NCBI RefSeq assembly: GCF_002854065.1
Contig: NZ_CP024147.1
DNA length: 64,000 nucleotides
Direction: 5' to 3' (one strand)
Source of the DNA: Escherichia coli
Lineage (GTDB): Bacteria > Pseudomonadota > Gammaproteobacteria > Enterobacterales > Enterobacteriaceae
Below, piece by piece: positions 4,235-57,485 of the stretch. Every line of letters starts with the position of its first letter. Positions within the stretch are counted from its first letter, which is position 1. Under the pieces are notes generated by a model. The model did not search any database, was not told where the DNA came from, and saw nothing but the letters and a program-made list of their open reading frames with translations. A program made the position numbers and the translations under genes.

Positions 4235-7038
<2,804 letters not shown>

Positions 7039-29919: not shown

Positions 29920-31164
29920 TTAAATATTTTTTTGTATGGTGTCCGGAGATAAGGATAAACTCTCATGCCTAGATAATGGGCGTTCATCTTCTTGTGTATA
30001 TATAACTTTATAATCTTTTGGTAAGTCTTCAGCCAGGCGACCGGAGAATAAAGTTAGTTCGTCAGTAGCCATCGTAAATAACCAAGCTTCCTGATTTATA
30101 CTCTGGTTAACTCGTAAAATTCTACCCAGTACCTGCCTGAAATAGAGCTCAGTTTTAACAGCGCTTAGATGACAGCAAACCTGAAGTCGAGGGATGTCTG
30201 TACCCTCACTGATCATGCCAACACTGACAATCCACTCGGTAGTCGCATGTCGATAATGGTCAATTTTAGAAATGGCTCTTCTATCGTGATATGTCACAAT
30301 AGTTGTAGTTTGGCCAAACTCGTTTTCTAAAATACTTAGTAGTTCATATGCATGCTCGACTGATGAAGCAACAACCAGACCACCTGCGTCAGGGTTAAAT
30401 TTTCTAATTTCACGAAGTTTTTCACATCCAGATTTGATTACATACCTCATTGCATCAGGATACCAAATTATTGATTGATATGAAGTTACTGTCTCATTCA
30501 AAAAGTCTGCTATAGAACTATAATTTTTCATTGTTTCATCGGATGAGATAGCCAAATTGCTACTATTTACAAGGACAATTTTTGGCTTACGACAAACGTT
30601 ATCTGCAATAGCTTCTCTGAGACCGTATTCATAGTCACAGCTAACCACTCCATCCGAATCAGTGTAATTTGAAAACACTATTGGTGTATTGTCTGTTCGC
30701 CATGGAGTTCCTGTTAATGCCAATGTGTAACTGACACATTGTTGAACTTGAGACAGTATTTCCCCGCCCCAGACATTTGCATTTTCCAATGAATCACCAG
30801 AGCAATGATGTATTTCGTCGAAAACAGCCAACACACGATGACGCTTCAAAGAATCCCAGAAACGTTTATCGAAATACATCAGACTATGATAAGTATACAC
30901 CGCGCCAACCGCACCAAAGTCTCCATCAAAACTTCTTTCCAGAATACGGGAAAAATTACTTTTTATAGATGAGACTACCGCTGTTGAGGGGGCAAAGCAT
31001 ATAACCAGATCAACCATATCGAGCTCAAGCATTCTTTTGGTGACTTCGGCCGCCATTACAGTTTTTCCAGCACCAGGACTTGCAAGACATAGAAAGTGCT
31101 GTAATCCAGATTGATACTTTGTTAGCGCAGCGGCAACGCATTCTTTCTGCCAATCTCTCAACAT
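29920..31164 (-). CDS. compact SF2 (DEAD/DEAH-type) helicase, function unknown
   Basis: 414 aa, low GC; motif I SPGAGKT, motif II FDEIHH, motif III LTGTP, motif VI QVLGRILR; no extra nuclease domain. Confidence 0.7.
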   Translation of the reverse strand: MLRDWQKECVAAALTKYQSGLQHFLCLASPGAGKTVMAAEVTKRMLELDMVDLVICFAPSTAVVSSIKSNFSRILERSFDGDFGAVGAVYTYHSLMYFDKRFWDSLKRHRVLAVFDEIHHCSGDSLENANVWGGEILSQVQQCVSYTLALTGTPWRTDNTPIVFSNYTDSDGVVSCDYEYGLREAIADNVCRKPKIVLVNSSNLAISSDETMKNYSSIADFLNETVTSYQSIIWYPDAMRYVIKSGCEKLREIRKFNPDAGGLVVASSVEHAYELLSILENEFGQTTTIVTYHDRRAISKIDHYRHATTEWIVSVGMISEGTDIPRLQVCCHLSAVKTELYFRQVLGRILRVNQSINQEAWLFTMATDELTLFSGRLAEDLPKDYKVIYTQEDERPLSRHESLSLSPDTIQKNI

Positions 31165-31280
31165 ACTCGATGCTCATCACTATGTTGACTAGACTGGCCC
31201 CCTGAATCTCCAGACAACCAATATCACTTAAATAAGTGATAGTCTTAATACTAGTTTTTAGACTAGTCATTGGAGAACAG

Positions 31281-31646
31281 ATGATTGATGTCTTAGGGCC
31301 GGAGAAACGCAGACGGCGTACCACACAGGAAAAGATCGCAATTGTTCAGCAGAGCTTTGAACCGGGGATGACGGTCTCCCTCGTTGCCCGGCAACATGGT
31401 GTAGCAGCCAGCCAGTTATTTCTCTGGCGTAAGCAATACCAGGAAGGAAGTCTTACTGCTGTCGCCGCCGGAGAACAGGTTGTTCCTGCCTCTGAACTTG
31501 CTGCCGCCATGAAGCAGATTAAAGAACTCCAGCGCCTGCTCGGCAAGAAAACGATGGAAAATGAACTCCTCAAAGAAGCCGTTGAATATGGACGGGCAAA
31601 AAAGTGGATAGCGCACGCGCCCTTATTGCCCGGGGATGGGGAGTAA
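31281..31646 (+). CDS. insC: IS2 transposase OrfA (InsC)
   Basis: Product [30 protein letters not shown]... HTH protein. Confidence 0.85.
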
Positions 31647-32509
31647 GCTTAGTCAGCCGTTGTCTCCGGGTGTCGCGTGCGCAGTTGCACGTCATTCTCA
31701 GACGAACCGATGACTGGATGGATGGCCGCCGCAGTCGTCACACTGATGATACGGATGTGCTTCTCCGTATACACCATGTTATCGGAGAGCTGCCCACGTA
31801 TGGTTATCGTCGGGTATGGGCGCTGCTTCGCAGACAGGCAGAACTTGATGGTATGCCTGCGATCAATGCCAAACGTGTTTACCGGATCATGCGCCAGAAT
31901 GCGCTGTTGCTTGAGCGAAAACCTGCTGTACCGCCATCGAAACGGGCACATACAGGCAGAGTGGCCGTGAAAGAAAGCAATCAGCGATGGTGCTCTGACG
32001 GGTTCGAGTTCTGCTGTGATAACGGAGAGAGACTGCGTGTCACGTTCGCGCTGGACTGCTGTGATCGTGAGGCACTGCACTGGGCGGTCACTACCGGCGG
32101 CTTCAACAGTGAAACAGTACAGGACGTCATGCTGGGAGCGGTGGAACGCCGCTTCGGCAACGATCTTCCGTCGTCTCCAGTGGAGTGGCTGACGGATAAT
32201 GGTTCATGCTACCGGGCTAATGAAACACGCCAGTTCGCCCGGATGTTGGGACTTGAACCGAAGAACACGGCGGTGCGGAGTCCGGAGAGTAACGGAATAG
32301 CAGAGAGCTTCGTGAAAACGATAAAGCGTGACTACATCAGTATCATGCCCAAACCAGACGGGTTAACGGCAGCAAAGAACCTTGCAGAGGCGTTCGAGCA
32401 TTATAACGAATGGCATCCGCATAGTGCGCTGGGTTATCGCTCGCCACGGGAATATCTGCGGCAGCGGGCTTGTAATGGGTTAAGTGATAACAGATGTCTG
32501 GAAATATAG
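31604..32509 (+). CDS. insD: IS2 transposase OrfB (InsD), DDE integrase-like
   Basis: 301-aa ORF in the frame overlapping insC 3-prime end, as expected for IS3-family frameshift expression. Confidence 0.85.
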
Positions 32510-33063
32510 GGGCAAATCCATTGACCAAGTACTTTTGTTAAAGCGGTAACTCTGCCAAGCAATTCTGCCGACTGATTTTTTGCCTGCTGATAAAGGTCCA
32601 TAAAACATATCTTCTTGGCTGGAAAACGTTCCATCAAAGATTGATATTCTTCTAGCTCGCCCAGAATCACAGCAAGTTTGGCTTCATGAATAACTTTTTC
32701 TTTTTCTATATCGACCAAGAAACGATCAGCCCCCGGTGCCGACGGTTTCATTTTTTCGGGCATAGCGATAAGCCGCGAATTCTTTGGCAACGCTCTTGGT
32801 ATGAAAATAGTTGAATGAAAACTTTCCGTTTTCTTATACACACTTCTGGACTTGCCACCACTACTCTCAATTTTATAGATGAAGCCCAGGGACTCTAACC
32901 GAAGAAGTTGTCGGTGAATGAATTTTCTAGCCTCAGTAACTTCTGCGTAGTCATCTGTAATCTTCAGCAAAGCATCCCTGAGATGGATAGCGCAGAACTC
33001 ATTAAAACCCATCTCAATCAATAACTTATACATATATGGATGCAACTTTACTGCAGATTTCAT
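32434..33063 (-). CDS. hypothetical protein with putative winged-helix region; native C-terminus displaced by IS2 (last 27 codons are IS2-encoded)
   Basis: ORF reads into IS2 at 32520; removing IS2 and one TTGAC copy restores ...VLGQHSDEHRVC-stop, ending 4 nt downstream of the helicase ATG. Confidence 0.55.
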
Positions 33064-33161
33064 TATAAAAAATCCAAAATAACAAACTTAGAATTGCTAA
33101 GTATACAGAAACCAACGAAACTTAGACAATCTCAGCACCCTAAGGCAATGATGATGAATAC

Positions 33162-33473
33162 GTGGCTCACCCAAACCCGATACCCGAGAGGCTCAAAGCG
33201 GCCAGAACAAAAGCTGGGATCACTCAGAAGGAATTGGGGATCCGAATTGGCATGGAACCCAGCTCGGCGAGTGGTCGTATGAACCATTATGAGAAAGGGA
33301 GACACACTCCTGACATTGATACCCTCAAGCGTATGGCTGATGAACTTGGGGTACCAATTAACTATTTCTTTTGCGAGAACGACATAACTGCAGAATTAGC
33401 ATGTCTGATAGCTAAAATGACTGAGCAGCAGCAGATTGAATTGATTGCTATGCTAAAGAAAAATCAATCTTAG
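33162..33473 (+). CDS. XRE-family helix-turn-helix transcriptional regulator
   Basis: 103 aa; HTH LKAARTKAGITQKELGIRIGMEPSSASGRMNHYEKG typical of Cro/C1-type regulators. Confidence 0.7.
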   Translation: MAHPNPIPERLKAARTKAGITQKELGIRIGMEPSSASGRMNHYEKGRHTPDIDTLKRMADELGVPINYFFCENDITAELACLIAKMTEQQQIELIAMLKKNQS

Positions 33474-33861
33474 ATTTTTCACAGAACTCATACCTGAATA
33501 ATATCAGGGTTTCTTAGATATCCTTGACCTGCGACGTATACGCCTCCTCGAAGGGTATCCGCAATTTCTTATCTCATGTATCAGCTACCACCCAAACCGA
33601 ATCTTCATCAGTTCCGGACGTCATGTAATAAACCATAATTCTGGAAATCAAGGAAGCAAATCTAATTGTGTAAATGACCCCGTTGTTTCAGTAATTGAGT
33701 AACATGCCATAAACGGGATTAATAAAGACTTCATTTTAATTTCAACGCCCTTATCAGCCTGAAGTAAAATATGACTTGCAGATCACGTGAATACCTAAGC
33801 TGGAAGAGTATCTTTTACTATTGCAGTCCAACGTGAGAAAACAACAAGTCAACAAGGATTC

Positions 33862-36474
33862 ATGATGCTCAGTAGCGAGTTTTTGCGCTTTTTTCAAACC
33901 TTAAACACAACAGAAGTCCCCAGTAATGTCAGGAAAATAGCGAATCTTGTGTGGGATAACCTAGATGATATAACCCCATTGGGCACTTCGCAGGGTCAGC
34001 GAGTCAGGCGCATTGTCTCTCTGGCACAGTCTGCATGGGATGCCCTCAGTACAGAAGTACAGCCACTACCAGAGCAGACCGCTGAACGCGTCTCCACGTT
34101 TAGTCGGCTGAGAAAGATATCTGTTGGACCATTTAGAGGGTTTGCAAAGCAAGAAGAATTTGATCTGGATTCACGTCTAGTGCTGATTTACGGCCCCAAT
34201 GGTACTGGGAAGTCAAGTTTCTGCGAAGCGCTTGAATATACATTACTGGGCAATGTGGCTGAGGCCGAAAGCAAGCGTTTCCGGAATCAAAACGACTATT
34301 TTAAAAATGCACATGTCAATCGGTTTTCTGTTCCAGAGATAATTGGTGTCGGAGATCATGGGCAGGATGTGTCGATTGAGAATAACGAAGCACAGTATCG
34401 CTTTTGCTTTGTTGAAAAAAATCGTATCGACAACTTTTCAAGAATCGCGGCTCTGGTCCCAACAAGGCAGACTGAACTTATCTCAACACTATTCGGGCTA
34501 GATAGTTTTAATGATTTTGTGCGAAATTTTACATCAGATATTGATGCCAGATACATCGATCTAACAGGCGTAAAAGCAGGTCAGTTGGCAGAAAAGCGCA
34601 AGTCTCTTCTGGCTGCACAGCAGCAATTGGCGACAGGTCAGGCTGCCCTGGAAGGGTTGGCATCAGAGGAACAGACACTGGCTTCTGTTTATCGTGAAGG
34701 CCTGTCTTACCAGCAGATGCTAGCTGAGTTAAAAGGGGATGAACAAAATATCGGAACCATCCGACAGCTTGAAACAGAGTTACAAACGCCACTTCCGAAT
34801 CAGAGTAGCCTGACATCTGCTATTTTGAACGATATAAGTAGCGCTGTTGAAACGGCACTTATAGATCTGGAAAGCAAGCAGAAGCAACTGGCAGAGGCAA
34901 GTCAGCAGGTTTCATATAAAAATTTATTTGAAGCAGTTGTCCAGTTACAGGGTACCAGCCCGGAACAATGCCCTGCATGCCATACCCCTCTTCAGCAAAC
35001 CGCCAAAAACCCCTACAGCCATGCCTGTGATGAATTGCTAAAGCTTGAGTTTCTGTCGACATTACAGGGAGAAATAACTCAGCTGGAAAAATTAATTGGC
35101 CAGTTGATGTACAGTGTTTCACAAGTAATCGGCACATGCTGTCAGTTTTTGCCACATGACAATGCTCTTGAAGTATTCCGAAATGAAAATGGCATCACTT
35201 TATGGCGTAATCTGCGGCAGCAAACAGGAGATGGCATAACTCCCTGGGCTCAGCTTGAAAAACAGGTGTGGCATCTGGAGGGAGAAGATAAAAAAATAGA
35301 GGAAGCAACTAAATTGCGAGAATCCCGTCAGCGGGATCTTGCGAGAATGCGTGAATCTGATCGCCAGATAACGATTTTGCAGACAAGAAGAGATACGATA
35401 GAAAAAACCATCTCTGCGGCTCAGTTGTTGATTGGCAACTTTGATACTGAAAACAGGCAGCTAATTGAAGAAGTTGCTCACGAAGAAGACATTGTAAGGA
35501 AAAACAAAGCAATTTCAGAAGCGTATTCCCGGTTCGTTTTACAGCTGAACGCCTATAAAGAGGGATTACCTCAGAGACTTGTAGCGAATCTTGGGGATCA
35601 CATTGTCACTCTCTACAACGCATTTAACCGTAATGACCCCCCGGGAGAAAAGCTAGCAGGTATCAAACTACCTCTGCTGCAGAATCAGCGACTGGAAGTA
35701 GCGTTTCAGAATAATCCAACGCAACTATTCGATGCCCTGCATGTACTTAGTGAGGGGCATGTACGCTGTATAGGGCTGGCTATTTTGTTGGCAAAAAACA
35801 TTAATGAACAGTGTCCACTTTTGATATTTGATGACCCGGTCAATGCTATTGATGACGATCACAGAGAATCGATTCGGAGAACGTTGTTTGAAGATGCTTT
35901 CTTTGCTGAAAAACAAATCATTCTGGCCTGCCATGGAGAGGAATTCTTCAAAGACATCCAGAATTTATTGCCAGCGCCGGTTGCCGCACAGTCCAAGACT
36001 TTCAGCTTCTTACCGCGTCTTGACGAATTGCATATCCGCGTAGATTTTAACTGCGCTCCCAGGAACTATATTATTTCTGCACGAGGGCATTATGAGCGTA
36101 ATGAGATTCGGGAGGCGCTTGCAAAATGCAGACAGTCACTTGAATCGTTGATGAAGGGGAGAGTCTGGCGATATGTAAATAAATATGGTGATGGTAATCT
36201 TAGTCTCAAGCTAAGGTCAGCAACGGCACCTATTGAGTTACGTAACTTGTCGGATCAATTGAAGAAACAGATCAATAAAGCTGAGTTCCGTGACCAAAAT
36301 AAAAACGCCGTATTCACACCAATTGATGTGTTAACTGGGCTAAGTGGAGAATCACGAGAATGGCGCTATCTAAATAAAGGTACGCATGAGGAAGACGGCA
36401 GGGCTGAGTTTGATCGAGCAACAGTAGAAACCATGATTTCTGCCCTTGAGGCGCTCGATCAGGCTGTGAGTTAA
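33862..36474 (+). CDS. SMC/Rad50/RloC-like ABC ATPase with central CxxC hook and uncharacterised C-terminal domain
   Basis: 870 aa; Walker A LIYGPNGTGKSS, about 500 aa Q/E/L-rich coiled-coil with EQCPACH midway, signature-like LSEGHVRCIGLA, Walker B/D-loop LLIFDDPVNAIDDDH, H-loop ILACHGEEF, then about 170 aa of unknown function. Confidence 0.65.
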   Translation: MMLSSEFLRFFQTLNTTEVPSNVRKIANLVWDNLDDITPLGTSQGQRVRRIVSLAQSAWDALSTEVQPLPEQTAERVSTFSRLRKISVGPFRGFAKQEEFDLDSRLVLIYGPNGTGKSSFCEALEYTLLGNVAEAESKRFRNQNDYFKNAHVNRFSVPEIIGVGDHGQDVSIENNEAQYRFCFVEKNRIDNFSRIAALVPTRQTELISTLFGLDSFNDFVRNFTSDIDARYIDLTGVKAGQLAEKRKSLLAAQQQLATGQAALEGLASEEQTLASVYREGLSYQQMLAELKGDEQNIGTIRQLETELQTPLPNQSSLTSAILNDISSAVETALIDLESKQKQLAEASQQVSYKNLFEAVVQLQGTSPEQCPACHTPLQQTAKNPYSHACDELLKLEFLSTLQGEITQLEKLIGQLMYSVSQVIGTCCQFLPHDNALEVFRNENGITLWRNLRQQTGDGITPWAQLEKQVWHLEGEDKKIEEATKLRESRQRDLARMRESDRQITILQTRRDTIEKTISAAQLLIGNFDTENRQLIEEVAHEEDIVRKNKAISEAYSRFVLQLNAYKEGLPQRLVANLGDHIVTLYNAFNRNDPPGEKLAGIKLPLLQNQRLEVAFQNNPTQLFDALHVLSEGHVRCIGLAILLAKNINEQCPLLIFDDPVNAIDDDHRESIRRTLFEDAFFAEKQIILACHGEEFFKDIQNLLPAPVAAQSKTFSFLPRLDELHIRVDFNCAPRNYIISARGHYERNEIREALAKCRQSLESLMKGRVWRYVNKYGDGNLSLKLRSATAPIELRNLSDQLKKQINKAEFRDQNKNAVFTPIDVLTGLSGESREWRYLNKGTHEEDGRAEFDRATVETMISALEALDQAVS

Positions 36475-49412: not shown

Positions 49413-50756
49413 ATGATCTTCTTTAGAGTTGAGCTAAAAGGAGTCGAGGCGATGGCCAGGATAATCCAATCAGCCGGTATCAATCATGGTGCAACAGCAA
49501 AAATAATTTCCGATTCAATAGATTATAACTCCGGCATACATATTGCAGGATTACCAACGCTATATAATAAAGATGGTCATTTTGTAGAAATTGTAAATTT
49601 GTGGTTTTTGGATTTGATAACCGTTAAGAGGCTAGAGGATATTAGTTCTTCAGCCAGAGCAATTCTTCGTTACTGGTCTTTTCTAGAACGAGAAGAGCTT
49701 ACATGGAGTCATTTTCCTCCAGTGAAACGCCTGAAACCCACATACCTTTTCCGTAGCAACGACTTGTTAAAAGCAGTTAAAGAGGGAAGACTGGCGTACT
49801 CAACTGCAAATACTTATATGGGACATTTAGTTCAGTTTTACATCTGGGCAATTGAAAATCATCATCTTGTCATATCAAGTGAAAAAGAAGCTCCCTTTAC
49901 TATTGAGTTTGTTAAGCGTAACAATAGAGGCCTGCTGGCACATCTTCGCCCAATGATCAGTGTGCAAACGAGCGATTTACGTATCCGCGTTCCTAAAGTT
50001 ACAAACGCCGAGATCCAGTCATTAACTCCTTTAACTCAAGATCATCTTTCCTTACTATCATTCAACTTAAGCCATCAATCTGTTGAATTTATGTTGATGA
50101 CTTTACTGGCCTGTAAAAGTGGTTTGAGACTTCGTGAAGCATGTAGCCTCACAATTGAGGCTTTATCTCAAGCTTTGCCCGCCAACGAATTAAAGCTACG
50201 CTATATGATCAACATTTGGCCCCACAATGGTGTTGATACAAAATTTAGAAAAAAAAGAAATATTGAAGTCCCCTGGCCTCTACTAAACGCATTACAACGC
50301 TACTCGCTGTCAGAAAGAAGGCAAAAAAGACTTTCAAAATTACAGACAAAAATAGCCATTCCCTCAATTTCGGAAAAGATTAAAGAATCCCACAATAAAG
50401 CATCTCGATTCGAACCTCTTTTTATCAGTCAGCAAGGAAATTGTATCCAGCCCGAAGTTCTAAATGCAAGGTGGGTTGCATTTAGAAATGAACTTGCCAA
50501 AAAAGAACCTAGTTTTCGTTATCGTTTCCACGACCTCCGATGTACCTATGCCACATACAGACTTCAAGACCTGCTGGATAGCAATCTCTCAGAAGGGGAT
50601 GCCCTAGACTGTCTTATGGGATGGATGGGACACAATAACGAAAGAACCACATTTAAATATATCCGCTACTTGAAGAAAAACGAGATGCTCAAGTGTGCTT
50701 TTTCGCTATTAGACTCAGTGATGGATAATGCAATAAGGGATAATTTAAATGACTGA
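49413..50756 (+). CDS. tyrosine site-specific recombinase (first of trio)
   Basis: R...HxxR...H...Y signature: LRLREACSL, FHDLRCTYATY, GHNNERTTFKYIRY. Confidence 0.8.
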   Translation: MIFFRVELKGVEAMARIIQSAGINHGATAKIISDSIDYNSGIHIAGLPTLYNKDGHFVEIVNLWFLDLITVKRLEDISSSARAILRYWSFLEREELTWSHFPPVKRLKPTYLFRSNDLLKAVKEGRLAYSTANTYMGHLVQFYIWAIENHHLVISSEKEAPFTIEFVKRNNRGLLAHLRPMISVQTSDLRIRVPKVTNAEIQSLTPLTQDHLSLLSFNLSHQSVEFMLMTLLACKSGLRLREACSLTIEALSQALPANELKLRYMINIWPHNGVDTKFRKKRNIEVPWPLLNALQRYSLSERRQKRLSKLQTKIAIPSISEKIKESHNKASRFEPLFISQQGNCIQPEVLNARWVAFRNELAKKEPSFRYRFHDLRCTYATYRLQDLLDSNLSEGDALDCLMGWMGHNNERTTFKYIRYLKKNEMLKCAFSLLDSVMDNAIRDNLND

Positions 50757-56787: not shown

Positions 56788-57291
56788 TTATTGATAGTGT
56801 TTTATGTTCAGATAATGCCCGATGACTTTGTCATGCAGCTCCACCGATTTTGAGAACGACAGCGACTTCCGTCCCAGCCGTGCCAGGTGCTGCCTCAGAT
56901 TCAGGTTATGCCGCTCAATTCGCTGCGTATATCGCTTGCTGATTACGTGCAGCTTTCCCTTCAGGCGGGATTCATACAGCGGCCAGCCATCCGTCATCCA
57001 TATCACCACGTCAAAGGGTGACAGCAGGCTCATAAGACGCCCCAGCGTCGCCATAGTGCGTTCACCGAATACGTGCGCAACAACCGTCTTCCGGAGCCTG
57101 TCATACGCGTAAAACAGCCAGCGCTGGCGCGATTTAGCCCCGACGTATCCCCACTGTTCGTCCATTTCCGCGCAGACGATGACGTCACTGCCCGGCTGTA
57201 TGCGCGAGGTTACCGACTGCGGCCTGAGTTTTTTAAATGGCGGAAAATCGTGTTGAGGCCAACGCCCATAATGCGGGCGGTTGCCCGGCAT
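56788..57291 (-). CDS. insB: IS1 InsB
   Basis: 167-aa ORF inside IS1. Confidence 0.85.
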
Positions 57292-57485
57292 CCAACGCCA
57301 TTCATGGCCATATCAATGATTTTCTGGTGCGTACCGGGTTGAGAAGCGGTGTAAGTGAACTGCAGTTGCCATGTTTTACGGCAGTGAGAGCAGAGATAGC
57401 GCTGATGTCCGGCAGTGCTTTTGCCGTTACGCACCACCCCGTCAGTAGCTGAACAGGAGGGACAGCTGATAGAAACAGAAGCCAC
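57210..57485 (-). CDS. insA: IS1 InsA
   Basis: 91-aa zinc-finger/[28 protein letters not shown]. Confidence 0.85.

Follow-up and report, generated by a model that had tools for sequence, protein, structure and literature searches.

Organization of the locus

The window analyzed here comprises 64,000 nucleotides of Escherichia coli contig NZ_CP024147.1 (assembly GCF_002854065.1). It contains a three-gene cassette made up of an XRE-type HTH regulator gene, a VspR-like regulator gene divergent from it, and an SF2 helicase gene that follows the VspR-like gene on the same strand. The VspR-like gene is interrupted in its last codons by a complete copy of IS2, the only one in the window (Table 1). 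This copy matches, over its full length and with 100% identity, E. coli elements annotated as 'IS3-like element IS2 family transposase', and a Pfam scan located HTH_Tnp_1 and rve domains in its reading frames. Its two ends (TAGACTGGCCCC... and TGGATTTGCCCC...) align as imperfect inverted repeats; the terminal repeats of IS2 are described as 41 and 42 bp long, IRL being the 42-bp repeat, and the A6G frameshift window of the element is described in the same work (PMC3299598). All four attributes by which assignment to IS2 was judged were found: length and identity, terminal repeats, the orfA/orfB arrangement with the A6G window and a DDE core, and a 5-bp duplication. The first-pass annotation had reported identical TTGAC pentamers flanking complete IS2 ends, 21-25 nt upstream of the helicase start, and both statements hold, since the helicase ATG lies on the minus strand at 31164. 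The insertion point lies 20 nt upstream of this start, which overlaps the regulator stop.

Regulator codons 1-181 are native and run from 33063 to 32521, after which the frame continues for 28 codons into the right end of IS2 and stops at 32434-32436; the minus strand of IRR encodes the first part of this 28-residue tail. Removing IS2 and one TTGAC copy reconstructs a 189-aa regulator with the C-terminus HSDEHRVC, which agrees with the earlier statement that the last eight codons have been replaced, although translation yields 28 IS2-encoded residues and not the 27 first counted. The last invariant residue in the family alignment is K177, all invariant positions are retained in the hybrid, and positions 182-188 constitute the least conserved segment of the alignment to homologues. 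The VspR-like label is based on precomputed Pfam tables, which list VspR_N and VspR_C (PF27213, PF27192) for the regulator and all its homologues, and on one UniRef entry that names it 'Transcriptional regulator VspR'. The regulator family profile also returns a weak match (E = 0.0011) to the MarR-like winged-helix protein MJ223. By these domain assignments, the interrupted gene is a predicted small VspR-like winged-helix regulator of 189 aa. The 209-aa hybrid, annotated as a 'hypothetical protein', calls for caution and should not be taken as the native gene product.

The helicase scores 47 bits for ResIII, above the cut-off, and slightly under the cut-off for Helicase_C. The GAGKT and DEIHH motifs are invariant in its family, in keeping with an SF2 (DExH) helicase. 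Its family profile matches the structures of XPBII (6p4f) and RadD (6jde) at about 1e-7, and these are its closest solved relatives; in the NCBIfam equivalog test for RadD (YejH), however, its score of 53 bits is far below the cut-off, which is 720.

In the ancestral arrangement the regulator stop overlaps the helicase start in the heptamer ATGTTGA. This 7-nt overlap (ATGYTRA) is kept in 10 loci from six genera, from Vibrio to E. coli, and it implies translational coupling of the two genes. The inverted repeat at the junction (TCAACATA/TATGTTGA) was considered as a conserved coupling hairpin and rejected, given a folding energy of -10.3 kcal/mol that is no better than that of shuffled sequences (z = -0.66) and its absence from the consensus fold of nine homologous junctions. 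A scan of 30900-33900 found a single promoter-like site on the operon strand, the presumed operon promoter.

Table 1. Coordinates of the features of the interrupted cassette in the 64,000-nucleotide window
Feature	Position	Strand	Description
SF2 (XPB/RadD-like) helicase ORF	29920-31164	-	414 aa; full-length allele 462 aa, would end at ~29777
T7 run (A7 in coding strand)	29927-29933	-	T8 in CUWW06 and 100416; truncates helicase
Junction segment	31158-31188	-	Helicase ATG, ancestral regulator stop and 8-bp inverted repeat TCAACATA/TATGTTGA
Target-site duplication TTGAC, left copy	31185-31189	.	-25 to -21 from helicase ATG
Complete IS2	31190-32520	+	1331 bp; transposase strand antisense to interrupted operon
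IS2 IRL	31190-31231	+	orfA-proximal, abuts helicase start; begins TAGACTGGCC; sequence TAGACTGGCCCCCTGAATC...
IS2 orfA	31281-31646	+	121 aa
A6G frameshift window	31598-31604	+	Inside IS2 orfA
IS2 orfB frame (integrase core)	31604-32509	+	rve, rve_3 and HTH_21 domains
IS2 IRR	32480-32520	+	Abuts truncated regulator gene; begins TGGATTTGCC; reverse complement of end TGGATTTGCCCCTATATTTCC...
Target-site duplication TTGAC, right copy	32521-32525	.	Identical to left copy
Hybrid VspR-like regulator gene	32434-33063	-	209 aa: native residues 1-181 plus 28 IS2-encoded; native protein 189 aa
Promoter-like site TTGTCT-18-TATACT	33100-33129	-	Presumed operon promoter; consensus scan only
Divergent XRE-type HTH regulator gene (C-protein/CapH-like)	33162-33473	+	HTH_3; conserved position beside regulator gene

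The empty site and the distribution of the insertion

A search of 5,426 complete E. coli genomes with the reconstructed 3-kb empty site matched three records. In E. coli 100416 the site is uninterrupted, at 99.9% identity, and has a single TTGAC; E. coli CUWW06, a complete genome, carries the same IS2 at the same position, and a single SNP and a single indel separate it from the window over 28 kb; and the third record is an Enterobacter-type plasmid with a homologue at 78% identity. The comparison with IS-free relatives that the first-pass annotation had proposed thus confirms the insertion: because 100416 keeps the uninterrupted site, the IS-free junction is ancestral and IS2 is a simple insertion. 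The intact ends, the perfect duplication and the empty-site allele with one TTGAC likewise bear out the proposed simple transposition with no later rearrangement. Neither chance nor an assembly artefact accounts for the junction, which recurs in CUWW06, an independently assembled complete genome, and on nine contigs.

In a large protein collection, the exact 209-aa hybrid is found on these nine contigs, whereas the exact native 189-aa protein is found on 897. Draft assemblies also contain regulator fragments of 206, 207 and 180 aa at contig ends, with breaks at or near the IS2 junction. Among other truncated variants of the regulator, P0049 and P0050 appeared by eye to be frameshifts, and P0048 may be a frameshift or an insertion. 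The IS2 insertion is a marker of a minority E. coli lineage, and this is its chief use. The type of event is already known and this particular insertion is already annotated in RefSeq; taken as a whole, it is an ordinary IS polymorphism, and the pattern of recurrence described below is modestly interesting.

Conservation and genomic context of the cassette

The cassette of XRE-HTH, VspR-like and SF2 helicase genes is present in E. coli, Salmonella, Enterobacter, Citrobacter, Buttiauxella and Vibrio metschnikovii. CBASS operons often adjoin it; they are seen in Enterobacter loci and not in the window. In E. coli the accessory island that bears the cassette sits between gorA and dinQ; in the window, the cassette occupies its gorA edge, and the island also holds an SMC/LmuB-like ATPase, two ars clusters and an integrase. 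A scan of species-representative genomes yielded only two loci, too few for a systematic survey.

Searches with PADLOC v2 gave no system-level match for the cassette and no hit for the regulator. The XRE-HTH gene matched Control_protein (4.9e-26) and capH (6e-9), and the helicase gave only partial matches to PbeA and to type IV restriction, at 1e-9 or weaker. The possibility that the cassette is a known defence system was rejected, as PADLOC recognized no system and NCBIfam and PHROGs returned only generic helicase matches. A literature search with the VspR Pfam accessions, or for VspR together with a helicase, found nothing on the cassette. The gene interrupted by IS2 is part of a widely conserved, unstudied three-gene cassette that accompanies CBASS and further defence genes as it moves.

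An independent frameshift in the helicase

The helicase of the window carries a second lesion, which the first-pass annotation had overlooked. An A8-to-A7 frameshift shortens it to 414 aa, against a family-typical length of about 460 (462) aa, and removes the C-terminal motif L..G.....VIDAFLF, which is almost fully conserved from Vibrio through to E. coli. The exact 414-aa protein occurs on 14 E. coli contigs and a Salmonella form of it on 78, for 92 contigs together; since the same form is present on other contigs, the allele is not a sequencing quirk of the window. All four combinations of presence and absence of the frameshift and of the IS insertion exist in E. coli, and the frameshift and the IS insertions are independent events, because the 414-aa alleles include loci with an intact regulator-helicase junction. 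In CUWW06 the IS2 allele occurs together with a helicase of 462 aa that is free of the frameshift, so at least one genome that bears IS2 has retained an intact helicase ORF. In the window, the helicase is predicted to be compromised whatever IS2 does, because the frameshift removes the conserved C-terminal motif.

Expected effect of IS2 on helicase expression

The anatomy of the locus shows a single simple transposition of IS2 into the last codons of the vspR-like gene, just before the helicase start. The regulator retains residues 1-181 and exchanges its variable last eight residues for the 28 encoded by the element, and the helicase would be cut off from the operon promoter. The first-pass annotation had likewise concluded that the helicase is parted from its native promoter, and IS2 does lie between the promoter-like site at 33129-33100, identified by consensus scan, and the helicase ATG. 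These are now about 1.9 kb apart, of which IS2 and the duplication account for 1336 bp. The upstream reading frame stops 1.27 kb ahead of the helicase ATG and the start/stop overlap is therefore lost, so that coupling by termination and reinitiation at ATGTTGA would presumably be lost to the helicase as well.

The orientation of the element bears on whether it could substitute for the lost promoter. The outward -35 hexamer of IS2, which builds both the minicircle junction promoter and the ampC and acrEF fusion promoters, resides in IRR (PMC9330008 section 4.2; PMC3299598), and IRL has only a weak inward promoter, P_IRL (PMC3299598; PMC9330008). IS2 is inserted with IRL toward the helicase; polarity is therefore expected rather than activation, as IRL would supply no known outward promoter element. 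Promoter scans for an outward promoter near IRL found no site above 8/12 matches.

RNA reading through the element would carry some 1.27 kb of antisense IS2 sequence and would probably be a substrate for Rho-dependent termination, which is plausible because the antisense IS2 RNA is C-rich, G-poor and untranslated (C of 0.25-0.38 against G of 0.19-0.29 over most of its length). RNA leaving IRL at the junction of the IS2 allele is predicted to fold at -25.4 kcal/mol (z = -5.1), and the resulting hairpin would bury the helicase AUG.

Judging from this anatomy, polar silencing of the helicase by IS2, with a tail-modified regulator still made, is the most likely outcome. Some transcription may nevertheless arise from a weak hybrid promoter-like site at the IRL junction (8/12 matches), or by read-through of the operon promoter. 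Of the two consequences that the first-pass annotation had put forward, inactivation is therefore the better supported, and an IS2-derived promoter is unlikely given that IRL faces the helicase and the outward -35 lies in IRR. We consider it probable that the account as a whole is correct, namely one IS2 transposition, a helicase most likely silenced, a regulator with a changed tail and, in the window, a helicase frameshifted in any case.

Recurrent insertions at the junction and their possible causes

The regulator-helicase junction has been interrupted more than once. In Salmonella Agona, the same island (99.95% identical to the window) carries IS3, whose 3-bp duplication (ATG) lies at -13 to -11, and the regulator acquires the C-terminus ...HSDVILPT. 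In Enterobacter hormaechei, a homologue with 71% protein identity carries an IS3-like element with the duplication AAG at about -34 to -32, some 9 bp further upstream than the E. coli TTGAC; its regulator ends in ...SKVILPT, and the helicase behind the element is intact at 462 aa. The IS2, IS3 and IS3-like insertions thus constitute three independent events confined to 24 bp, and in each of them IRL faces the helicase. Another Enterobacter contig breaks off just after a candidate IS3-family-like terminus about 24 codons before the regulator stop. VspR residues are retained to at least position 165-177 in all insertion alleles, this candidate fourth included. The insertions were found through C-terminal variants of the regulator protein.

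This recurrence points either to selection for a helicase uncoupled from a retained regulator or to a hot spot for insertion. Under selection, IS3-family hits at the 3' end of the vspR-like gene would repeat because alleles with the helicase off or uncoupled and the repressor kept are favoured, an explanation that is compatible with polar silencing and would add an adaptive cause to it. The clustering and common orientation of the three events in E. coli, Salmonella Agona and E. hormaechei argue for it, as do the candidate fourth IS end, the preservation of most of the regulator in every insertion, and the frequency of the frameshifted helicase (the 92 contigs with the 414-aa form) next to an exact native regulator on 897. 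A rough estimate places the chance of three hits within 24 bp of the 570-bp gene at ~0.005, for a pattern that was found post hoc, in a comparison confined to variants of the regulator C-terminus. Against selection, the events number only three or four, three insertions would share an orientation by chance at 0.25, and the Enterobacter helicase downstream of its element is intact. We regard selection as possible, with the balance leaning against it. The repeated and independent disruption of the helicase arm does suggest a fitness cost.

The same cluster of three IS3-family insertions could also arise if local DNA shape or sequence made the junction a mechanistic hot spot for IS3-family transposases, with no selection involved. 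Targeting by similarity to IS termini has been reported for IS911. Near the present site, however, the best likeness to IS2 or IS3 termini is 7/12 and does not exceed chance (empirical P = 0.86 for IRL and 0.96 for IRR), and targeting of this kind was rejected. The local inverted repeat is not kept across the family, the Enterobacter target sequence is unlike that of E. coli, and the duplications differ in length among the elements (5 bp and 3 bp). A hot spot is favoured by the report that insertion of IS2 is non-random and occurs at sites of intrinsic curvature (PMC3299598). The negative results on terminus likeness and on conserved structure weaken this explanation somewhat, although DNA-shape effects may yet play a part, and we judge it improbable.

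A broader proposal would join these observations: a conserved cassette on VSP-1-like and CBASS-bearing islands, from Vibrio to E. coli, in which IS hits within 24 bp and the recurrent A8/A7 frameshift would repeatedly and specifically turn off the helicase arm, with the regulator preserved. On this view the helicase would be costly or conditionally harmful, and insertion of an IS at the junction would be a recurrent evolutionary off-switch. We put it forward tentatively and consider it rather doubtful in this full form. The recurrent disruption of the helicase arm is the sole aspect of the locus worth following up.

Continued expression or activation of the helicase in the IS2 allele, through an outward IS2 promoter or read-through and with a module that remains functional under an altered regulator, is distinctly improbable: fusion promoters made by IS2 are known, as at ampC and acrEF (PMC9330008), a weak hybrid promoter-like site with 8/12 matches (TTGTCT in IRL, 18 nt, TCTAGT) spans the IRL junction, and a full-length helicase ORF is kept behind IS2 in CUWW06, but an IS2-driven helicase is unlikely because the gene faces IRL while the outward -35, in IRR, points away from it, a standard promoter scan makes no call at IRL, translational coupling is lost in this allele, the helicase AUG would lie within the -25 kcal/mol hairpin of any transcript leaving IRL, and the helicase of the window is frameshifted. 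Polar silencing thus remains the preferred reading of the IS2 allele.

Comparison with known systems

On the VSP-1 island of V. cholerae, VspR (VC0177) represses the CBASS genes (bioRxiv 10.1101/2023.04.04.535582). Precomputed tables assign the regulator described here to VspR_N and VspR_C, and its homologues adjoin capV-dncV-cap2-cap3 CBASS operons in Enterobacter. Unlike VspR of VSP-1, it has no adjacent CBASS in the window, and an SF2 helicase gene always overlaps and follows it. This helicase is not known to be part of VSP-1. The XRE-HTH gene of the cassette resembles the CapH and C-protein-type regulators of defence operons, the C-proteins being those of restriction-modification systems, but no CapP protease partner is present. 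The helicase has ResIII and Helicase_C in common with both XPB/Rad25 and RadD, and differs from them in being shorter (462 aa) and in possessing a conserved C-terminal motif of its own.

The insertion itself resembles known IS2 insertions in the 1331-bp element, the 5-bp duplication and the location within an operon ahead of a distal gene. Polar effects of IS2 on downstream genes are known from the classical cases in the gal and lac operons. An IS2 fusion promoter at ampC was reportedly described by Jaurin and Normark in 1983. In the known IS2 fusion promoters IRR supplies the -35 element, whereas the helicase here faces IRL instead.

Insertions at the regulator-helicase junction

Two further elements of the IS3 family occupy the junction between the VspR-like regulator and SF2 helicase genes, one in Salmonella Agona and one in Enterobacter hormaechei, both at most 24 bp from the IS2 site and both oriented as IS2 is, with the left inverted repeat (IRL) toward the helicase. 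These insertions, the coordinates of which are listed in the table, are independent events. Separately, a regulator homologue in another locus (L024, 5480-5514) departs at the contig end into TGACCTGCTCCCCGTTGATTAGTACACCC, which may represent a fourth IS3-family terminus, roughly 24 codons ahead of the regulator stop.

In the predicted fold of minus-strand RNA from the IS2 allele (window 31165-31235), the IRL tip CCAGUCUA forms a duplex with AGAGAUUGG, codons 3-6 of the helicase. This lengthening of the local hairpin brings it to -25.4 kcal/mol (z = -5.1) and leaves the AUG buried. The complementarity between IRL tip and helicase codons appears to be fortuitous.

Allelic variation and annotation of the cassette genes

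Sequence comparison identifies a run of seven T at window 29927-29933, on the minus strand within the helicase gene, versus eight in E. coli strains CUWW06 (same IS2 junction) and 100416 (empty site). The shorter run yields a protein of 414 rather than 462 aa, with loss of a conserved C-terminal motif. This allele is common, with 14 contigs in E. coli and 78 in Salmonella, and IS insertions accompany it in some cases but not in others, which suggests recurrent slippage or recombination as its origin.

RefSeq describes the HTH gene as a single intact 103-aa gene in CUWW06, whereas its annotation of 100416 shows a pseudogene and a separate small XRE gene. Given that the gene is identical in the window and in 100416, this discrepancy is one of inconsistent annotation and does not reflect a difference in sequence.

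Genomic context

Features of the window and comparison loci
Feature	Location	Strand	Remarks
IS3, Salmonella Agona (L004-L007)	L005 6554-7810		3-bp duplication ATG
IS3-like element, E. hormaechei	L023 about 5633-6885		3-bp duplication AAG
XRE-HTH gene	window 33162-33473	+
XRE-HTH gene, strain 100416	L001 14138-14449
SMC/LmuB-like ATPase, 870 aa	window 33862-36474	+	PADLOC LmuB 3e-26
Accessory island	window about 29650-55800		between gorA and dinQ
Site-specific integrase in island	window 49413-50756		followed by four hypothetical genes
IS1	window about 56788-57485		just outside island

The accessory island carries two arsenic-resistance clusters and a glutathione-synthetase-like gene; near-identical segments in Salmonella adjoin gorA and are also found on a 302-kb plasmid (L004). 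The SMC/LmuB-like ATPase gene is intact in the window but frameshift-split in other E. coli (L015-L019), and in strain 100416 (L001) an IS3-family element interrupts it; no LmuA partner is recognisable next to the window copy.

Across the loci compared (the window, L008, L011 and L027-L031), the divergent XRE-HTH gene, VspR-like regulator and SF2 helicase form a cassette conserved from Vibrio to E. coli, with a start/stop overlap of 7 nt. The cassette is absent from the anti-phage defence models of PADLOC v2; its neighbours are frequently CBASS operons of types II and III or, in Vibrio, a reverse transcriptase gene.
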